This document shows, one piece after another, positions 1 to 9,305 of a stretch of 9,305 nucleotides of DNA. Below the pieces are notes generated by a model that made no database searches, was not told where the DNA came from, and was given only the letters and a program-made list of their open reading frames with translations. How positions within the stretch are numbered: the stretch's first letter is position 1; each line of letters begins with the position of its first letter. Origin of the DNA: a virus (taxonomy: Duplodnaviria > Heunggongvirae > Uroviricota > Caudoviricetes); IMG/VR virus record IMGVR_UViG_2711768006_000002. One strand, 5' to 3'. A program made the position numbers and the translations under genes.

Positions 1-12
1 TCCAATGTGCAT

Positions 13-46
13 AAAAAAATCCGGAAACAAGTGAGCGTTTCCGGAT
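13..46 (-). terminator. Intrinsic terminator immediately downstream of the portal gene
   Basis: On the minus strand a perfect 10-bp inverted repeat (plus 19-28 ATCCGGAAAC / 37-46 GTTTCCGGAT) with an 8-nt loop is followed by a T-run (plus A-run 13-18). The portal stop codon is at 80-82. Confidence 0.6.
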
Positions 47-79
47 TCTTACACAGCCACTGGATCGGTCAACTGATCC

Positions 80-1236
80 TTAACTGATCGGCATTACACC
101 ACCGGGACGCGGATTCATATCTTCCAGGTCGCGGCAGTCATTGGAAGAGTAAATTCCCCAGTTGATCCCGGTGGCGTAGGCTTCAAAACGGGACTTCATA
201 TCCCCGCGCAGTAACGCCCCGGCGTTAAATTTGGCGTAATAAACGCCCTGCTTACTTTTTCGTACCAGTCCGGTGTTGATCCGCTGTTCGATGCGGGTCA
301 GATACGGCACCAGTGAATAGTTGATAAATCCCAGCCCCAGCTCTTCGATATTGTTGAAGGTGGCGCGATCGGTGTTCTGCACCATGTGCAACGGCACCCG
401 GAACAGACGACAGATTTCTTCCAGCTGAAACTTGCGGGTTTCCAGGAACTGACTGTCCTCGGCGTTCAGCGCCATCGACTTCCAGTCCAGCCCCATTTCC
501 AGAATCATCGGGCGGTGAGCATTGCCAAGCCCCGTGTGACACTCCTCAAAATCTTTCTTCAGACGCTCGTAAGCATCCGGCGTGAGCTTTTGTTCCGTAC
601 GCAACACACCGGATGTCACCGCACCATTACTAAACAACCTGGCACCGTGCTCCTCGGTTGCCGCTGCCAGTGAAATGGCCTCACGCGCATACGCAATGGG
701 ATTCAGCCCGACAAGTCCATCCAGCGTCAGGGTGCGCACATGCCAGATTTCATTCTGGGTCAACACATCCACGGAACCATCCGGAAACGTCACCTGATAA
801 ACCGGCTGCCACTGGCTGTTCAGCTTCGGTTCCACACAGCCCGGATCTATCGGAAGAAGCTCCACCACTTCTCCCAGTGCCTTTACCTTGTAGGCGTAAA
901 AATTCCCCCGTAGACACAGGCAGACAATAACCAGCTCCCAGAATTCCTGCGGTGTCATGTAGCCATTAGGTTTTGCCGAAACCAACTTATGCAGTCGTTC
1001 ATCCACCGCCCGTGTTTTCAGGGTACCGCTGATTTTGTAGAGACTGCAGGGCAGCATACCAACAGACTCTGCCAGCACCCTGACGCAAGAATAGACCGCC
1101 GTCAGGCGCATGGCCCGCTGGCTACTGATCCGCTTTCCGGTATAGGTGTCGTATGACAGCCCGATAGCATCAGCAGTTCTGCTGGCGTGGTCACCGGCAC
1201 ATCGCTTTTTCGTTGAAATAATCCCGAAAAGAACAC
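80..1236 (-). CDS. Phage portal protein, HK97 family; 5' end apparently frameshifted, start uncertain
   Basis: The 415-aa ORF contains a portal-like core (AMRLTAVYSCVRVLAESVGMLPCSLYK near the N-terminus, NDCRDLEDMNPRPGG at the C-terminus). The ORF-track start at 1327 is a TTG in a TTG-TTG-TTG run with no RBS and overlaps the upstream small ORF by 92 nt. A GTG at 1236-1234 overlaps the upstream stop (TAGTG) and has GGAGGT 5 nt upstream, but it is in another frame that stops at about 1105. The first in-frame ATG is at 1111. Confidence 0.8.
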
Positions 1237-1418
1237 TATTTACCTCCGCCGACAGACTGCCGTGTACGGTCGAGATATCGCGCCACCAGCCACGACCAGA
1301 ACAGGCACAGCGCCCCGGCAACAACAAAACCCGCCGGGGGATAAATCAGCCAGGCACCATACGCCAGCAAAAGCGCACCCAGCACGCCCACCAGAGGCGC
1401 GAGAATCAGCATGATCAT
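1236..1418 (-). CDS. Small membrane protein (60 aa, two predicted transmembrane helices) between large terminase and portal
   Basis: ATG at 1418 with GAGGT 4-5 nt upstream, 11 nt after the large-terminase stop. The product [60 protein letters not shown] is hydrophobic with a basic C-terminus. No homolog recalled. Confidence 0.5.
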
Positions 1419-1429
1419 AATTACCTCAG

Positions 1430-3163
1430 TTAAAGCGAGCGGATCCCGTAGGACTCAATGTGGTCAGACAGCGTGTCTTCTTTCTCGTACAGCATGGCTC
1501 TGCCAACCGCCATAATCAGCGCAACTGCACCATCGATTTTGTTTTCCGCCTGCTCTTTGACGGGTTTCACCACATCATCGTTACCCGGCATGTTTTTGCC
1601 GACCACGTTGCCGATACACCAGGTCATGATGGGATTGCCGTCATGATGAAAACGTCCCGATTCAATCGCTGCTTCCAGCTCTTTCATCGGATCGGACATA
1701 TTGGTGAAGTTCTGGACGATAGTGACGGGATTCAGGTCTTCATCAGCAAGGTCATGTGACAACCCGGTCGCCCCGAAGGGGTCGATGGGTGACTCACTGA
1801 CCGGGCTGATTTTGTTCGCCGCTTTGGCCTCCTCGAGGATGTAGCGATAATCCACCTCCGCACCATCGGTAACGGTCAGAACGCCCATTTCCACCCATTT
1901 CTGAAAGCGTTCGGCTGTCCGTCGATCTTCATTTTTCTCGACGCTGTACACCGTGTCATACGGTACCCAGAAACGCGGGGCCACACTGTAGTAATGCGTT
2001 TTACCGTCAATCTCGCGGGTATAAAGTCGCGCCATGCTGTTCATATCCAGCTTACGCGCCAGGTCAAAGGCCAGAATGCACGGCTGCCCCTCGAACTGCT
2101 CAAGGGTCAGTGATTTATCCTCGCAGCTCTGCCAGCTCACCAAGTTGAAATACGCCGAACGCGCCGACACCCAGATATTGAGGTGTTTTGTTTTAAAGAC
2201 GTTTGCCAGACGGGCGTTATTTTTCGCACGCTGCTGCTGACTTAACAAAAATTCGCGATAAACCGACACGCCAATATTTGGATTGGCTTTTTCCAGCACC
2301 TGCGGGCCGGTCCAGTCGTCACCTTCATCAACGGTATAGATGATCCCGAACAGTTCATCGTTAGGCACCGAGCCGTTGAGCATCTCGATGACTTCCCGCC
2401 GCTTGTCGTAGCACGGCCCCTCAATGTTGTACCCGGCGGTGGTGATGGCCCACATCAGTGGCTGACGTCGCGCCCCCATCCCGGTAAGCATTGTGGTATA
2501 AAGCGCATCGGTGGCATGCTCGTGATATTCATCAACCACGGCACAGTGGGGTGATGAACCATCACCTGGGTTGCCGATCAGCGGTTCAAACCGCGCGCCA
2601 TCCTCCGGACGGTTCATGTTTGAGGCGTTAACCTCAATCCCGAACGCTTCCGTCAGCATGGGTGTGCGTTTACACATCAGTCGCGCCGGGCGAAAGACTT
2701 CCCACGCCTGTTTCTCTGTCGTGGCACCGGAATACACTTCCGCGCCAAACTCGTTATCACAGGCAAAACAATACAGGGCAACACCGGCAGAGATTGCTGA
2801 TTTGCCGTTCTTACGGGGGATTTCGGTGTACACCTCCCGGAAGCGGCGCAACCGGGTGCCTTTATTGACCCAGCCAAACGCACAGCAGATCACAAATAGC
2901 TGCCACGGCTCCAGCGTGATGGGCATCCGTTTGAATGCCCACTCCCCCTTGGTGTGCGGCAACAGCTGAATAAATTTCGCGGCCCGTTCAGCCAGGTCCT
3001 TGTCGAAGCGGTAACGAAACGACTTACTTTTTTCCGCCATCAGGTCATCAAGATGGCGCTGGCAGGCCTGAATCACAAACTGGCAGGCAACAATCTTTCC
3101 GCGCACGACATCCCGGGCATACTGATTTGCAGCATTTACGTTGGGGTAAGATTTCCGGCTCAT
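1430..3163 (-). CDS. Terminase large subunit (Terminase_1 / HK97-like)
   Basis: 577-aa ORF with an ATG at 3163 overlapping the upstream stop (ATGA). It has a Walker-A-like PRKNGKS motif and the overall architecture of large terminases. It lies directly after the small terminase and before the portal. Confidence 0.92.
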
Positions 3164-3654
3164 GATTCGATAATTTTCAGAAACGGGTTAGTGGCTTTCT
3201 TCTGCCCCGCCAGGCCAATCAGACGCTGGCGGCTGCTGGGGTCGAGTCCGAGCATTGCCCCCGTGCTGCTCATCTCGGACTCCTGTTCTTTTTTGGCGGT
3301 CAGCTCCGGATTTTTGACCCTGCCGCCCATTGCACCGGTGATGGTGTTGCCCTGTATGGCAATATTTTTCACGGCACGTCGCCAGAACTCATAGGCCACG
3401 CACCACCGCTCAAGTACCGCCAGGTCAGTCACGCACAGCAGGCCCTGACCGCAGAGTTCTTTGGTTGTCAGTTGCCACATGATCGTGGCGAGAGGGAGAT
3501 CTTCTTCAGCGAACCACTCTGGTGGCTCAACACCTTTGATGGGCGTAAAAACAGGTTCATCTTTGTTCAGGGCTCGCTTGCCGGGGTTTCCGGCCAGCGC
3601 CTTGCGCGCCGTTGGCTTGGGGCGACGCCCGGAACGCCCCGCCGTTCCAGCCAT
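3160..3654 (-). CDS. Terminase small subunit, P27 family
   Basis: The ORF track starts at GTG 3663, but that GTG lies inside the Shine-Dalgarno sequence AGGAGT. The ATG at 3654 is 8 nt downstream of AGGAG and gives [27 protein letters not shown], typical of P27-family small terminases. The stop overlaps the large-terminase start. Confidence 0.88.
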
Positions 3655-3693
3655 ATGCGGCACTCCTGGTTAAATTTCATTTTTCGCGGGTAT

Positions 3694-3753
3694 AAAAAAA
3701 CGATGGGGCGGGCAGTCCGGAAGACGTCAGGTCACAGGGATTTGCCCCGCCCC
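3694..3753 (-). other. GC-rich inverted repeat plus T7 run in the HNH-terS intergenic region; candidate cos/packaging site or terminator-like element
   Basis: Arms at plus 3705-3714 (GGGGCGGGCA) and 3743-3753 (TGCCCCGCCCC) are separated by 28 nt. On the minus strand they are followed by TTTTTTT (plus A-run 3694-3700). In HK97-type phages cos lies between the HNH gene and the small terminase gene. Confidence 0.35.
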
Positions 3754-3775
3754 TCCCTACAAGTGAGAATAATTA

Positions 3776-4126
3776 TCACCGGATTCGTTCGCGCGCTGTT
3801 TTCGCTTTATGGCAGGGCCAGCACAGACTCTGCAGGTTGCTGTCTGCGTCTGTTCCGCCATGCGCTTTCGGGATGATGTGGTCGACGGTTTTCGCCTCGC
3901 TCACCACACCGACACGCAGACACAACTGACACAGACCTTTATCGCGCTTCAGAATACGGGCACGAATCACCGTCCATTTTGAGCCATAGCCACGCTGGTG
4001 GCGGCTCAGTCCGCGCTGGTGCTGCACCCAGCCTTCACCGCGATGTTTATCGCAGTAACCCGAACTGTCTGTGGTTGTACCTGCACATCCACGCTTACGG
4101 CAGGCACGTGGGATTAGTGATGGCAT
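3776..4126 (-). CDS. HNH endonuclease (phage packaging-associated, HK97 gp74-like)
   Basis: 116-aa ORF with ATG at 4126 and GAGGT 5 nt upstream. It is Cys/His-rich with CxxC pairs and an HNH-type motif (DHIIPKAHGGTDADSNLQSLCWPCH). It sits immediately upstream of the small terminase. Confidence 0.88.
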   Translation of the reverse strand: MPSLIPRACRKRGCAGTTTDSSGYCDKHRGEGWVQHQRGLSRHQRGYGSKWTVIRARILKRDKGLCQLCLRVGVVSEAKTVDHIIPKAHGGTDADSNLQSLCWPCHKAKTARERIR

Positions 4127-4168
4127 AAATACCTCATACCCTGCGAAATGTTTACCACGATAAAAAGG

Positions 4169-4411
4169 CTACTTAATGCACTGAGTGCGGATATACTCCT
4201 GTGCCCCTTCCAGTTGCATCTGCATCGTCATCAGCCGCTCTCTGAGGGTGAAATAATCCCGTTCAGCGGTGTCTGCCAGTCGGGGGCTGGTTGCATTATC
4301 CACGCCGGAGGCGGTGGTGGCTTCACGCACTGACTGACAGACTGCTTTGATGTGCAACCGACGACGACCAGCGGCAACATCAGCGCGCAGAGTTTCATTT
4401 TCAGCTTTCGC
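4169..4411 (-). CDS. Rz: Rz i-spanin, C-terminal portion (5' part lost in N run)
   Basis: The visible 80 aa (AKAENETLRADVAAGRRRLHIKAVCQSVREATTASGVDNATSPRLADTAERDYFTLRERLMTMQMQLEGAQEYIRTQCIK) are near-identical to the C-terminal half of lambda Rz as I recall it. Stop TAG at 4169-4171. Confidence 0.88.
   Translation of the reverse strand, partial: AKAENETLRADVAAGRRRLHIKAVCQSVREATTASGVDNATSPRLADTAERDYFTLRERLMTMQMQLEGAQEYIRTQCIK
4231..4398 (-). CDS. Rz1: Rz1 o-spanin lipoprotein embedded in Rz in the +1 frame
   Basis: Product MKLCALMLPLVVVGCTSKQSVSQCVKPPPPPAWIMQPAPDWQTPLNGIISPSESG has a lipobox (VVGC) and a penta-proline tract, matching lambda Rz1. The true start may lie 1-5 codons upstream inside the N run (lambda Rz1 begins MLKLKMM). 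Confidence 0.85.
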   Translation of the reverse strand: MKLCALMLPLVVVGCTSKQSVSQCVKPPPPPAWIMQPAPDWQTPLNGIISPSESG

Positions 4412-4610
4412 NNNNNNNNNNNNNNNNNNNNNNNNNNNNNNNNNNNNNNNNNNNNNNNNNNNNNNNNNNNNNNNNNNNNNNNNNNNNNNNNNNNNNNNNN
4501 NNNNNNNNNNNNNNNNNNNNNNNNNNNNNNNNNNNNNNNNNNNNNNNNNNNNNNNNNNNNNNNNNNNNNNNNNNNNNNNNNNNNNNNNNNNNNNNNNNNN
4601 NNNNNNNNNN
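4412..4610. other. Run of 199 N (assembly gap or masked segment)
   Basis: Continuous N. The flanking reading frames cannot be joined: the endolysin N-terminus is above it and the Rz C-terminus below it, in different frames, with about 600 nt of expected coding sequence unaccounted for. Confidence 0.95.
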
Positions 4611-4700
4611 ACCACCTGGGCCAGTGATTAACACAGATGCTATAGCAACAGCCCCACCACCAATAGCAGCTGCAACAGCCTTGCGTAATGATGGCGACAT
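4611..4700 (-). CDS. R: SAR endolysin (phage 21 R21-like lysozyme), N-terminal 30 codons only
   Basis: ATG at 4700 with GAGGTG 4 nt upstream. The product [30 protein letters not shown] matches the signal-anchor-release domain of phage 21 endolysin. The stop of the upstream holin overlaps the start (TAATG). Confidence 0.8.
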
Positions 4701-4867
4701 TATTCACCTCTCGCAGCCTTACGCTTGTCTTCTCTTATTTTGAAATACAGATTTGTCAGATAAGTCAGAAGCCCCAGAAGCAGACTTCCCAGCACACCAA
4801 TCGCAGCCCACTGTGATGGACTGACCTGATCCAACCACTGCAAAAACCAGTAGCCGGCACTGCCGGC
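4700..4867 (-). CDS. S: Pinholin (phage 21 S21-like class II holin), C-terminal 55 codons; 5' end lost in N run
   Basis: The visible [55 protein letters not shown] is near-identical to the S21 pinholin as recalled. Stop TAA at 4700-4702. Confidence 0.82.
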
Positions 4868-5117
4868 NNNNNNNNNNNNNNNNNNNNNNNNNNNNNNNNN
4901 NNNNNNNNNNNNNNNNNNNNNNNNNNNNNNNNNNNNNNNNNNNNNNNNNNNNNNNNNNNNNNNNNNNNNNNNNNNNNNNNNNNNNNNNNNNNNNNNNNNN
5001 NNNNNNNNNNNNNNNNNNNNNNNNNNNNNNNNNNNNNNNNNNNNNNNNNNNNNNNNNNNNNNNNNNNNNNNNNNNNNNNNNNNNNNNNNNNNNNNNNNNN
5101 NNNNNNNNNNNNNNNNN
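4868..5117. other. Run of 250 N (assembly gap or masked segment)
   Basis: Continuous N lying between the tRNA array and the holin. It hides the holin start (about 16 codons) and roughly 200 nt or more of upstream sequence. Confidence 0.95.
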
Positions 5118-5180
5118 GAGTCAGACATTCCCACACAATATTGTGTCAGTGCAAATAACAACCTTCGTCTCAAATCTCGC

Positions 5181-5255
<75 letters not shown>

Positions 5256-5258
5256 ATA

Positions 5259-5334
<76 letters not shown>

Positions 5335-5336
5335 GC

Positions 5337-5413
5337 TGGCCCACCACCGAGGACTCGAACCTCGCACCGTCAACTTAGAAGGTTGATGCTCTATCCGGAT
5401 GAGCTAGTGGTGG
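5337..5413 (-). tRNA. tRNA-Arg (anticodon UCU, reads AGA/AGG)
   Basis: Reverse complement reads CCACCACTAGCTCATCCGGATAGAGCATCAACCTTCTAAGTTGACGGTGCGAGGTTCGAGTCCTCGGTGGTGGGCCA. Anticodon stem TCAAC/GTTGA, loop CUUCUAA, T-loop TTCGAGT, encoded CCA. Confidence 0.85.
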
Positions 5414-5414
5414 T

Positions 5415-5491
5415 TGGTGGCCCTTGCTGGACTTGAACCAGCGACCTGGCGATTATGAGTCGCTCGCTCTGACCAACTGAGCTAAAGGGCC
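5415..5491 (-). tRNA. tRNA-Ile2-like (anticodon CAU, ileX/ileZ type)
   Basis: Reverse complement reads GGCCCTTTAGCTCAGTTGGTCAGAGCGAGCGACTCATAATCGCCAGGTCGCTGGTTCAAGTCCAGCAAGGGCCACCA. Anticodon loop CUCAUAA. It closely resembles E. coli ileX (minor isoleucine tRNA) rather than tRNA-Met. Confidence 0.85.
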
Positions 5492-5500
5492 GGAGGCAGA

Positions 5501-5529
5501 ATAATAACCATATGTCATCACATCTGCAA
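5501..5529 (-). promoter_or_regulatory. Candidate sigma70 promoter for the tRNA array
   Basis: On the minus strand: -35 TTGCAG (plus 5524-5529), 17-nt spacer, -10 TATTAT (plus 5501-5506), with the tRNA-Ile 5' end about 9 nt downstream. Confidence 0.4.
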
Positions 5530-5579
5530 ACTCATCTGACCACCAGCACGTTTAACGTCCTGTGCCGTTTTTCAGGTAT

Positions 5580-5606
5580 AAAAAAACCCGCTCATCGGCG
5601 GGTTTA
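5580..5606 (-). terminator. Intrinsic terminator downstream of the ORF6N-domain gene
   Basis: On the minus strand: AAACCCGC-CGATGA-GCGGGTTT hairpin (8-bp stem) followed by TTTTTTTAT (plus A-run 5580-5586). Confidence 0.65.
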
Positions 5607-5680
5607 AGCTGTGTGGCGTAGTAACCACTCTTAACAGGATATTCAACTTTTTACGATCGTAAAGTTTTCGGAAAAAATTT

Positions 5681-6250
5681 TTAAAACCGCATCAACCGCT
5701 CCACCAGTTGCTCTTTACGGGCAACGATCCACCCGTGTTGCTCCAGATAAAATTTAAACCGTTCCAGAGTACATACCATCGCATCGGCGGGTACCTTTTC
5801 CGTGAACTCAACCTGACCGTGTTTATCGAAGTGGCTCAGTAATGCGCATCCATCATTTTCGATAGATGTGTTTTGTGCCGCTGGTGGCTGTTTCTGGTTG
5901 AAATAACAGTCTTCCAGTTTTTCGAACACTTCCCACGCCTGATCGGTTTCGAGCATTTTGGCGTGACGGGCTGCGCCACGTTCTGTCCAGAGGATGAGGG
6001 AGCGAACGTTACGGGCAATTTTCACAGAAACTCTTAAAGAGTTTTCGTTCTTCAACTCTCGTAACGCATCACCTTCTATCAGGAAAAAATGTTTACCTTC
6101 TATAAACCGTTCTTTGTTTCGATTGAAATTGTTTGTCAAACGCTGGCGCTCTGTTCCGTACAAATCAGCCAGCAGCTCTGTTGTCATGACAGGAAGATGG
6201 TTATGCGTAAGTGACGGGAGTTTTTCAATAGACGTGCGATTCATAGACAT
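5681..6250 (-). CDS. ORF6N-domain protein (KilA-N/Bro-N-like, phage antirepressor-like), cargo gene between Q and the lysis cassette
   Basis: The 253-aa ORF begins at a GTG with no RBS. The ATG pair at 6250/6244 is preceded by AAAGGA and gives MSMNRTSIEKLPSLTHNHLPVMTTELLADLYGTERQRLTNNFNRNKERFIEGKHFFL, which fits the ORF6N consensus as I recall it (LAELYGV..RLNE..KRN.ERFPEDFMFQL). The C-terminal half is not recognised. Confidence 0.6.
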   Translation of the reverse strand: MSMNRTSIEKLPSLTHNHLPVMTTELLADLYGTERQRLTNNFNRNKERFIEGKHFFLIEGDALRELKNENSLRVSVKIARNVRSLILWTERGAARHAKMLETDQAWEVFEKLEDCYFNQKQPPAAQNTSIENDGCALLSHFDKHGQVEFTEKVPADAMVCTLERFKFYLEQHGWIVARKEQLVERLMRF

Positions 6251-6605
6251 GTCCTTTCGAATATTTTGATTTACCCCTTTTGAGAGGGTGACCGGGCGCT
6301 CAAAACCGTCGAAAGTCGGCGGGCGTATTTCCATTGCTGGTATTGTATTAGCCGCACACCCGGTCATAAACCAAGAATTCTGGACACAAAAAAACCACAT
6401 GGCTATCGGGTGTGGATACCGCTTTCGAGGTGTTTTGAGCACCGCGGGGAAATGTAAACTGCAAACCTGAAACTGTCAACACCGTCAGGTTCCAATCATC
6501 GGGTGGTGAGACGCACAGGGTTGGAACTACCGGGAAACCGACCGGCGAGCTTTTCAGCTCCCCCATGCGCCCCACCATAATTCAGATGTGCGCGTGCATA
6601 CGACA

Positions 6606-6630
6606 ATAAAAAACACGCTCGCGGCGTGTG
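6606..6630 (-). terminator. Candidate tR' (late-operon terminator read through by Q-modified polymerase)
   Basis: On the minus strand: ACACGC-CGCGA-GCGTGT hairpin followed by TTTTTTATTG (plus A-run 6608-6613), about 75 nt downstream of the candidate pR' start site. Confidence 0.5.
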
Positions 6631-6690
6631 TCTGTCGCGGTCTCTATCCGGGGTTCCAATCCCGACGCCAGATTTTGCTGGCGCGTGAGG

Positions 6691-6720
6691 AATATAGCCC
6701 CGGACAATGTGTCTGGTCAA
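6691..6720 (-). promoter_or_regulatory. Candidate late promoter pR' with Q-utilisation region
   Basis: On the minus strand, 5 nt after the Q stop: -35 TTGACC (plus 6715-6720), 18-nt spacer, -10 TATATT (plus 6691-6696). Position immediately downstream of Q matches lambdoid pR'. Confidence 0.55.
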
Positions 6721-6724
6721 GCAC

Positions 6725-7111
6725 CTACATAATTCGTTCTACGTATCTGTCCATCTCCAGCCGGATATCAAGCATCATCAACATGCCATCAATAACCCCT
6801 TCCGCTTTCTGCAGGCGCTTGCCAATACAGGTATCCGAACACCCATGTTTCCGTGCCAGACTCATAAAAGTCATTCCACCTACGTAATAATCCACCAGCA
6901 AATCGTGCAAATCCTGATTTTTCTTGTTCAACCGGGCCATACAGCCACAAATTATCATTGCATCATCATCAGAACACTGAGGGCGTGATTTCACTTTCGA
7001 CGGAATTAACCCTTTAAAACCAGCAGCGATCGACGCCCAGGATACATCTTCATGAGTGTTTGCAGCCCAAGCCCCCCACCGTTCCATAACCTGCTGAATA
7101 TCACGCGCCAT
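6725..7111 (-). CDS. Q: Late-gene antitermination protein Q (phage 82/21-type)
   Basis: ATG at 7111 with AGGTGA 6 nt upstream, overlapping the rusA 3' end. Product [61 protein letters not shown] matches the Q family found in E. coli prophages. Confidence 0.9.
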
Positions 7112-7472
7112 CGTTATCACCTGTGATTTCATAAATCTTCACGCCCAGTCGCCCACCAGGAACGAGCTGACCGCGCACAATATTGATTTCATCAAACTGC
7201 TCGTCGTCTATGAGTAGTCCGGCATGCGTCAGCGCATCCAGTGGTGCTTTCAGGATATTGTCCAGGTCACGACGGCGCTTATCCGGTGGCTCTGCAATAA
7301 TCTTTATCGCCAGCCTTCCGGACAGGTTTAATTTCAGCCGCTGCTGGCGAACAATTAGCGTCACATCACGGCGATAACGCTCACCAACTTTTGATACAAA
7401 ATATGTGCTGCCACGACGTCGCCAGTAAGTATTCACCGTCGGCGGATAAGGTAAAATAAACTCATGGCGCAT
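7101..7472 (-). CDS. rusA: RusA-family Holliday junction resolvase
   Basis: 123-aa ORF with ATG at 7472 overlapping the upstream stop (TGATG). It has the RusA-like catalytic region [29 protein letters not shown]. Its position just upstream of Q is typical of the nin region. Confidence 0.88.
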
Positions 7473-7714
7473 CAGCGCAGCACCTCCTGCACCATTTTTT
7501 CAAACTTTCCAACTTTGGTTTCCAGCTCTGCCACACAATCAACGAGCTCATCCACCGCTTTTTGTGCGCGATGTTTCGCCTGCATCAGTTCCCTGAGCGC
7601 TGGCACCATATCCCGACGAATGGCATCTTTTGTTACACCTGTTTTTTCCAGTTGTTCCGCCTGTCGCAACATTTCCTGCGCGTGTTTACGCAATTGTTCA
7701 GAGGTAAAAGTCAT
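7472..7714 (-). CDS. Hypothetical 80-aa protein, predicted helical/coiled-coil, nin-region
   Basis: ATG at 7714 (the ORF track begins at an upstream TTG), 12 nt after the helicase stop. Product MTFTSEQLRKHAQEMLRQAEQLEKTGVTKDAIRRDMVPALRELMQAKHRAQKAVDELVDCVAELETKVGKFEKMVQEVLR is charged with heptad-like spacing. No family recognised. Confidence 0.6.
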   Translation of the reverse strand: MTFTSEQLRKHAQEMLRQAEQLEKTGVTKDAIRRDMVPALRELMQAKHRAQKAVDELVDCVAELETKVGKFEKMVQEVLR

Positions 7715-7725
7715 TGTCTGGTTGT

Positions 7726-9117
7726 TCAAAAGAAACGCTCCATCTTACTGCTGTCGGTACGTGTATTGCTGTATCTGCGCGGCTGGGGCTGCCGCATTGG
7801 GGTGGAAAGAACCTGTGCGCTTTCCTGGTCCACAGGCAGAAAATGTCCGTTATAAAAACGCCGGTAAATCGTCCCCAGAGAACCGTTACGTTGTTTCGTG
7901 ATATTAATTTCTGCTATGCCTGTAGCCTGTGTATCCGGGTTGTACACTTCATCCCTGTAAAGCATCAGAATGATGTCTGCATCCGCCTCTATTTCTCCGG
8001 AATTTTTCAGGTCTGAGTTCATGGGACGTTTATTGGGTCTGGACTCCACACCGCGGGAGAGCTGGCTCAGCGCAATCAACGGAAAACCACCGGATTTTGC
8101 CAGGCCTTTAAGCCCCTTTGAGATTTCACCCACGGCAAGGTCATGACGCCCCGTGGTTCGGGTTTTTATCAGCCCGAGATAATCAACCACCACCAGCGCC
8201 GTTTCCGGATGTTTAATCAGATGGTGTTTCGTTGTTGCGCATATCTCATCAATGGTCAGGTTCGCCTGGTCCACCATCCAGATATTGCGCCCGGTCATCC
8301 GCCCCACCCCTTGTGAGAAACGCGCCCAGTCTTCATCTTCAAAGTGAGCCACAGATTTCAGGCGTGATACTGGCATCCCTCCAGCCGCAGACACCATACG
8401 TTCACCAATCTGGATGTTCGCCATCTCCATGGTGAACAGAAGCACACCATGCCCCTGCTCAGTCACCTTGTCGATGATGTCCAGCGCAAGTTCGGTTTTC
8501 CCCATCGAAGGACGGGCGGCAATGAATACCAGGTCTCCGGGCTCCATACCGCCTGTTTTTGCGTCCAGTTCATCAATACCGGTCATCAACGTCCTGGATT
8601 TCTCCAGCCCCTGATTCCGGCATTCAACACGCTCAACCACTTCCGGAAGCACATCATCAATATGTACCGGCTGAATGACGCCCTTTCCTGTCGACAGTGT
8701 GACCATCATGTTCTGCGCATCCTTCAGGGCATCTTCAGCTGCTTCACAGGTATGCGCATCACGTAATTTCTGCAGCGCCTCATTCAGTGTTTTTTCTGCA
8801 TCGCGCAGTGCGGCATTGCGCCGCAACGCTGCAACATAGTGCTCCAGTGAAGACTTCACCCAGGTTTTACGCCCGGTATCAGTAATCACCGGGGCAAGTT
8901 CCGGCATCTCATTACACAACAGCACGGGGTCAATCACTCCTGAAACACGGGCCTGTCTGCAGATGCCTGTGTAGATATCCCGATACGCTCGTACAGAAAA
9001 AATGTCCGCCGGTAGTGTGATCAGAATATCCATCACTTCATGATCTGCCCCACGCAGAAAGAATGCGCCAATGACAGCGCCTTCCAGGTCATCATTACGC
9101 CAGACTGGTGTTGTCAT
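7726..9117 (-). CDS. Replicative DNA helicase, DnaB family (phage-encoded)
   Basis: The ORF track starts at GTG 9258. The ATG at 9117 is preceded by AGAGGTG and gives MTTPVWRNDDLEGAVIGAFFL, a DnaB-like N-terminal domain. Walker A (FIAARPSMGKTELAL) and DnaB-like C-terminal motifs are present. Confidence 0.9.
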   Translation of the reverse strand: MTTPVWRNDDLEGAVIGAFFLRGADHEVMDILITLPADIFSVRAYRDIYTGICRQARVSGVIDPVLLCNEMPELAPVITDTGRKTWVKSSLEHYVAALRRNAALRDAEKTLNEALQKLRDAHTCEAAEDALKDAQNMMVTLSTGKGVIQPVHIDDVLPEVVERVECRNQGLEKSRTLMTGIDELDAKTGGMEPGDLVFIAARPSMGKTELALDIIDKVTEQGHGVLLFTMEMANIQIGERMVSAAGGMPVSRLKSVAHFEDEDWARFSQGVGRMTGRNIWMVDQANLTIDEICATTKHHLIKHPETALVVVDYLGLIKTRTTGRHDLAVGEISKGLKGLAKSGGFPLIALSQLSRGVESRPNKRPMNSDLKNSGEIEADADIILMLYRDEVYNPDTQATGIAEINITKQRNGSLGTIYRRFYNGHFLPVDQESAQVLSTPMRQPQPRRYSNTRTDSSKMERFF

Positions 9118-9305
9118 GCAGCCACACCTCTGATACAAGAACGGTAGCTGGGCCAGTTGAACGACAACCAGTTGCGCCCCCCGTCTGTGATCCTGTCGGC
9201 AATGCGGGGGCTGATGAACGCTGGATTTGCCCCTATATTTCCAGACACCTGTTATCACTTAACCCATTACTGGCTTGCTGCCGTAGATATTCCCGTGGCG
9301 AGCGA

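Follow-up and report, generated by a model that had tools for sequence, protein, structure and literature searches.

The window, that is, the whole stretch of 9,305 nt analyzed here (IMG/VR virus record IMGVR_UViG_2711768006_000002, Caudoviricetes), is a lambdoid prophage of the Escherichia/Shigella group with phage-21-type lysis genes and a P27-type terminase. All its genes are located on the minus strand, in the order of a lambdoid late region. The replicative helicase (9258..7726) is followed by RusA (7472..7101), a Q-like antiterminator (7132..6725), and an ORF6N-domain protein (within 6442..5681). Four tRNA genes (5181..5491; Gly-tcc, Thr-tgt, Arg-tct, and Met/Ile-cat) lie upstream of the lysis cassette, and the gene of an HNH endonuclease (3776..4126) is found immediately downstream of Rz. 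Past the HNH endonuclease, the gene order continues with the small and large terminase subunits and the portal.

The lysis cassette is interrupted by two runs of undetermined bases, neither of which is assigned to a strand. N run 1 covers positions 4412..4610 and consists of exactly 199 N, uninterrupted and with ordinary sequence on both sides, and N run 2 covers positions 4868..5117 (250 N). The pieces left by the two runs are 1-4411, an island of 257 nt (4611-4867), and 5118-9305. The island carries codons 17-71 and the stop of a class II (phage 21 S-type) holin (4700..4867, minus strand; PF04971), whose stop shares one base with the endolysin ATG, and the 30 N-terminal codons of the endolysin with its signal-anchor-release (SAR) segment (4611..4700, minus strand), read from the open reading frame. 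On the other side of N run 1, the 80 C-terminal codons and the stop of the i-spanin Rz are found (4169..4411, minus strand; PF03245), together with the o-spanin lipoprotein Rz1, which lies in the +1 frame of Rz (4231..4411, minus strand; PF06085). The ATG of Rz1 is cut by the edge of the gap, and only its G is left at 4411. The 80 Rz residues present in the window align with profile positions 47-125 of 126 of the Pfam family Rz PF03245 (E 6.7e-35).

Concerning the DNA that belongs at N run 1, gap-free copies of the same prophage gave a uniform result. Seven other assemblies agree with the window at each aligned non-N base (100% identity), and all seven carry exactly 626 nt at this position. 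Two of them, the IMG/VR contigs L045 and L094, align with the window over 8,835 and 8,777 non-N nt, respectively, with zero mismatches and no gap, and present 626 nt at N run 1 and 665 nt at N run 2. A further contig (L075) is identical to the window as far as it reaches. Other assemblies of the prophage were found by a look-up of the neighbouring HNH protein; among these, L146 (CP104423.1), L148, and L150 (CP022457.1) are located on records of 4.8-4.9 Mb (with CP-type chromosome accessions in two cases) and are again 100% identical, with 626 nt at N run 1 and 663-665 nt at N run 2. The flanks of the window are collinear with the gap-free copies in L045, L094, L075, L146, L148, and L150, and it is the N count that differs from the true distance. 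Moreover, the closest complete RefSeq genomes of E. coli (96% and 92% identity) carry 626 nt at N run 1 as well.

Distances between the flanks were also obtained from a wider set of loci. Exact words of 31 and 36 nt from both flanks led to 143 viral-contig loci, and in the four of them that contain both words these are exactly 626 nt apart. When the flanks were defined by BLAST, 93 related loci presented both sides, with distances of 625 (1 locus), 626 (23), 975, 1037 (17), 1081 (44), and up to 1743 nt, none of them near 199.

The 626 nt contain codons 31-165 and the stop of the endolysin, codons 1-74 of Rz, and the A and T of the Rz1 ATG, which is to say 408 nt of endolysin and 222 nt of Rz, less an overlap of 4 nt. 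An earlier examination of the window from its letters alone (the sequence-only reading) had proposed that 199 N are too short for the missing endolysin and Rz sequence, for which it considered roughly 600 nt necessary, and the 626 nt present in every assembly identical to the window bear out both statements. The limits that it gave, with a 30-codon endolysin N-terminus ending at 4611 and an 80-codon Rz C-terminus resuming at 4411, were also recovered exactly: the minus-strand open reading frame runs from the ATG at 4700 for 30 codons down to 4611, and the Rz frame (stop at 4169-4171) extends over 80 codons from 4411, reading AKAENETLRADV...RTQCIK. Its identification of a SAR endolysin and of Rz agrees with the Pfam and PDB matches. 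In contrast, the case by which it would have been refuted, an unusually short endolysin or Rz fitting into 199 nt, does not hold, as the identical prophages carry an endolysin of 165 aa and an Rz of 154 aa over the 626 nt. The frame conflict on which it also relied is real in so far as the endolysin and Rz frames differ (4700-4411 = 289 = 1 mod 3), but the frames of R and Rz differ in the intact cassette too, where they overlap by ATGA, and hence this difference alone is no sign of damage. The abnormal point at N run 1 is rather that 626-199 = 427, which is no multiple of 3.

Two further features of the locus had been overlooked by that reading: N run 2 shows the same defect, and the start of Rz1 sits exactly at a gap edge. 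In the identical prophages, N run 2 represents 663-665 nt, which comprise codons 1-16 of the holin and a non-coding stretch of about 617 nt located upstream of it. The shortfall is nearly equal in both runs (427 nt in run 1 and 415 nt in run 2). The length of this second hidden stretch is 663, 664, or 665 nt among the otherwise identical records L146, L148, and L150, a spread of 1-2 nt that may come from homopolymer error or from real indel variation in non-coding DNA. Rfam showed only the four tRNAs in the reconstructed region and gave no match in the hidden stretches.

The intact cassette could be followed in L045. There, a holin of 71 aa (4787-5002) is followed by an endolysin of 165 aa (5002-5499) and an Rz of 154 aa (5496-5960) that overlaps the endolysin stop by ATGA. 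The Rz1 of 60 aa (5716-5898), which begins MRKLKMKLCALMLPLVVVGC..., is wholly embedded in the +1 frame of Rz and has a lipobox Cys, as in embedded spanins. Pfam assigned the holin to PF04971 (phage P21 holin S; E 1.5e-35), the endolysin to PF00959 (residues 34-156), Rz to PF03245, and Rz1 to PF06085 (E 6.4e-20). Against the PDB, the full-length endolysin matched 4ZPU (RrrD, E 1.6e-109), 3HDE (E 1.2e-108), and 3HDF (E about 1e-108), the last two of which we take to be the SAR endolysin of phage 21. The catalytic residues E35, D44, and T50 can be read in the endolysin of the identical prophages. The whole catalytic domain, including these three residues, falls within the hidden stretch, and the window displays residues 1-30 only. 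The combination expected of a SAR endolysin, a Gly/Ala-rich and weakly hydrophobic N-terminus joined to a lysozyme domain with a Glu-Asp-Thr triad, is thus seen in the protein reconstructed from the identical prophages and not in the window by itself.

Hence, the underlying cassette is a textbook phage-21-type module of holin, SAR endolysin, and spanins, which is already well known. The reconstructed cassette has the same four gene families as that of phage 21 (the S21 pinholin, the R21 SAR endolysin, and Rz/Rz1), and its endolysin matches RrrD (4ZPU) over the full length, RrrD belonging to the homologous cassette essD-rrrD-rzpD/rzoD of E. coli DLP12. The DNA of Escherichia phage 21 (OL657228.1), with annotated SAR endolysin, i-spanin, o-spanin, and class II holin/antiholin, is 92% identical. 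The cassette differs from that of phage 21 by a few amino-acid substitutions only, although most of it is unreadable in the window. In contrast, the phage around the cassette is different from phage 21, with a P27-family small terminase, an HNH endonuclease, and a tRNA cluster.

Considering these results, we regard the 199 N as an ordinary gap of a draft scaffold whose length was underestimated, and thus as a technical artefact and not a biological feature, with a probability of about 0.8. Of the two alternatives offered by the sequence-only reading, it is the undersized scaffold gap that gained support, and a real deletion inactivating the cassette did not. The lysis cassette is near-identical to those of other prophages, and short reads may not have been assembled through it. 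The repeats would have caused the assembly to break, and the three pieces would then have been joined by N runs of estimated and not of measured length, with an error that probably comes from a paired-end estimator. Judging from the identical prophages, the content of N run 1 is most likely the same 626 nt, which would encode an intact endolysin of 165 aa and an intact Rz of 154 aa; that the source genome itself holds this intact sequence is what its identical relatives suggest. The locus resembles the gaps of estimated length (assembly_gap) that short-read drafts show at repeats, with an N run between collinear contigs and a poor N count. It also shares with typical scaffold gaps at repeats the presence of the true sequence in finished genomes, the multi-copy character of the hidden DNA, and the tiny, unique contig of 257 nt between the gaps.

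The repeated character of the hidden DNA is clear among complete genomes of E. coli, as the hidden 626 nt are present in 5,066 of 5,426 (93%); the number of places per genome has a median of 2 and a maximum of 8. Furthermore, in the closest cassettes that are not identical to that of the window, the hidden stretch has diverged far less than the retained island of 257 nt. The cassette of L001 presents 5 differences in the 626 hidden nt vs 20 in the 257-nt island, that of L153 has 5 in the 626 hidden nt vs 6 in 81, and L147 shows no differences in 665 nt of the second hidden stretch vs 8 in the 257-nt island. Hidden stretches more conserved than the island are the pattern expected if shared sequence is collapsed and the strain-specific island alone can be assembled.

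Contigs of other assemblies tend to break in this region. One locus that is 100% identical to the window and occurs in 5 samples (L155) ends 306 nt into the hidden stretch, and the longest contig with the adjacent HNH gene is shorter than 20 kb in 6,497 of the 6,686 index blocks (97%). Of the ends of 112 loci, a distance of 626 nt takes in 12 on the gap side vs 14 on the opposite (HNH) side, counts in which some of the ends may be storage limits and not ends of contigs. These counts fit a fragile region in general and are not specific to the hidden stretch.

Regarding the length of the runs, a naive paired-end estimator, which subtracts the contig bases observed from the mean insert, was simulated on the true layout, and with a mean insert of 500-600 and reads of 100 nt it returned about 200-250 for both gaps. 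The simulated estimate hardly depends on the true gap, since an island as short as 257 nt is reached only by inserts from the long tail. The estimator could in this way be the source of the length error, which is a plausibility argument and not a proof. A direct statement of this bias was not found in the parts of the literature at hand, in which the citing papers name Sahlin et al. 2012, so the argument is built on the simulation and on background knowledge.

The point at which the N runs depart from a typical scaffold gap is the position of their edges. All three gap edges that fall inside genes (4411|4412, 4610|4611, and 4867|4868) are on codon boundaries, between codons 74|75 of Rz, 30|31 of the endolysin, and 16|17 of the holin, for which the chance is about 1/27, and the edge at 4411 also splits the start codon of Rz1. 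Edges of this kind are not predicted by a scaffolder and hint at another origin of the Ns. Neither the comparison of k-mers and SNPs nor analysis by hand gave an explanation of them from the assembly graph. A de Bruijn-graph signature, in which each gap edge would lie k-1 from the closest SNP of a paralogous cassette, was searched for and discarded, as none was consistent: the common-variant SNPs are 45 nt from one edge of the island and 113 nt from the other, so no single k fits, and none of the fetched loci was identical across the hidden stretch while differing elsewhere. A model of a wobble SNP plus k-1 was likewise rejected by hand, as no single k brings the two edges of a gap to codon boundaries at once.

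The codon-boundary edges, unexpected for assembly breaks, are an argument for a different source of the Ns, namely a masking or data-preparation step that left runs of arbitrary length over an intact cassette. This possibility would also agree with the description of the genome contig collection as having a few masked stretches that read as N runs, and with the fact that the exact scaffold has no match in the viral, genome, and metagenome collections. Nevertheless, a mask normally keeps the length of the sequence, and here 626 nt became 199 and 665 became 250. Besides, the hidden intervals match no gene or domain, as one goes from the middle of the endolysin to the middle of Rz and the other from non-coding DNA into codon 16 of the holin; they contain nothing sensitive or unusual, and N runs of this kind appear in none of the 155 fetched loci. 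Masking is thus considered unlikely, and scaffold gap and mask lead to the same biology, which is probably that of an ordinary, intact phage-21-type lysis cassette. Another reading takes the N count literally, the Ns being bases of low quality but correct number. The prophage would then have lost about 427 nt from endolysin and Rz, as well as about 415 nt where the holin starts, and its lysis cassette would be dead. As 199 and 626 do not differ by a multiple of 3, such a loss would be frameshifting and inactivating; moreover, genuine decay of the cassette does exist in the relatives L149 and L153, where it was produced by IS66-/IS3-family transposase genes instead. However, N stands for an undetermined base and no junction is observed. 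A pattern of the left flank, 185-215 bases of any kind, and the right flank had no match in the viral, species-representative genome, and metagenome collections, although the same pattern recovered the window's own N run as a positive control, and an exact 31-mer from the left flank was likewise absent from the genome collection. A deletion allele joining the flanks through about 199 nt was therefore found in none of these three public collections, nor among the 93 related loci, where the minimum is 625 nt. Such a deletion would also need two independent and nearly equal losses, 257 nt apart and each exactly covered by Ns, in 8.8 kb that are otherwise 100% identical. Two deletions of similar size, each under Ns, are implausible in otherwise identical DNA and far less probable than a technical cause, and the deletion reading is given hardly any credence.

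It could also be thought that a true assembly gap hides content unlike that of the relatives, such as an IS element or a rearrangement in the endolysin and Rz genes. IS elements abut the cassette in L149 and L153, and contigs are well known to break at IS copies. Even so, a simple IS insertion would leave the contigs abutting at one position of the reference, and it was ruled out as the hidden content because the contig ends lack 626 nt of phage DNA between them. Furthermore, the pattern of missing sequence recurs 257 nt away, and the seven assemblies that are 100% identical at the flanks all carry the plain 626 nt, which makes differing content very unlikely. Slightly less credible still is that the Ns conceal a real rearrangement in this particular strain, such as a pair of deletions of about 420 nt each or an event mediated by an IS. 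If that were true, the window would represent a lysis-defective, domesticated prophage, as opposed to the intact copies in sister strains.

With an undersized scaffold gap as the preferred reading, the relevance of the locus is one of data hygiene only, in that N runs in draft scaffolds are not literal lengths. Truncations and frame conflicts at the edges of N runs are no evidence of pseudogenes, and a literal reading of the Ns would wrongly class this prophage as lysis-defective.

For comparison, the loss of the lysis cassette in L149 and L153 leaves a visible record. In both loci, at about 1-2500, in a region 98% identical to window positions 3707-4411, IS3-/IS66-family transposase genes replace the holin and the start of the endolysin. 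These are cases of genuine IS-mediated loss of the lysis cassette, with a signature quite unlike an N run.

The tRNA genes of the window form a cluster between the genes on the Q side and the holin. ARAGORN calls the tRNA with the CAT anticodon Met, and it is probably Ile2. In the closest RefSeq relatives the tRNAs are annotated as Gly, Thr, Lys, and Ile, so that the third tRNA of the cluster differs between relatives.

Finally, L045, an independent draft with a whole contig of 10,126 nt, extends to within 2 and 19 nt of the two ends of the window (window positions 3-9286). This suggests that L045 and the window are bounded by the same repeats, located in the portal and helicase genes.
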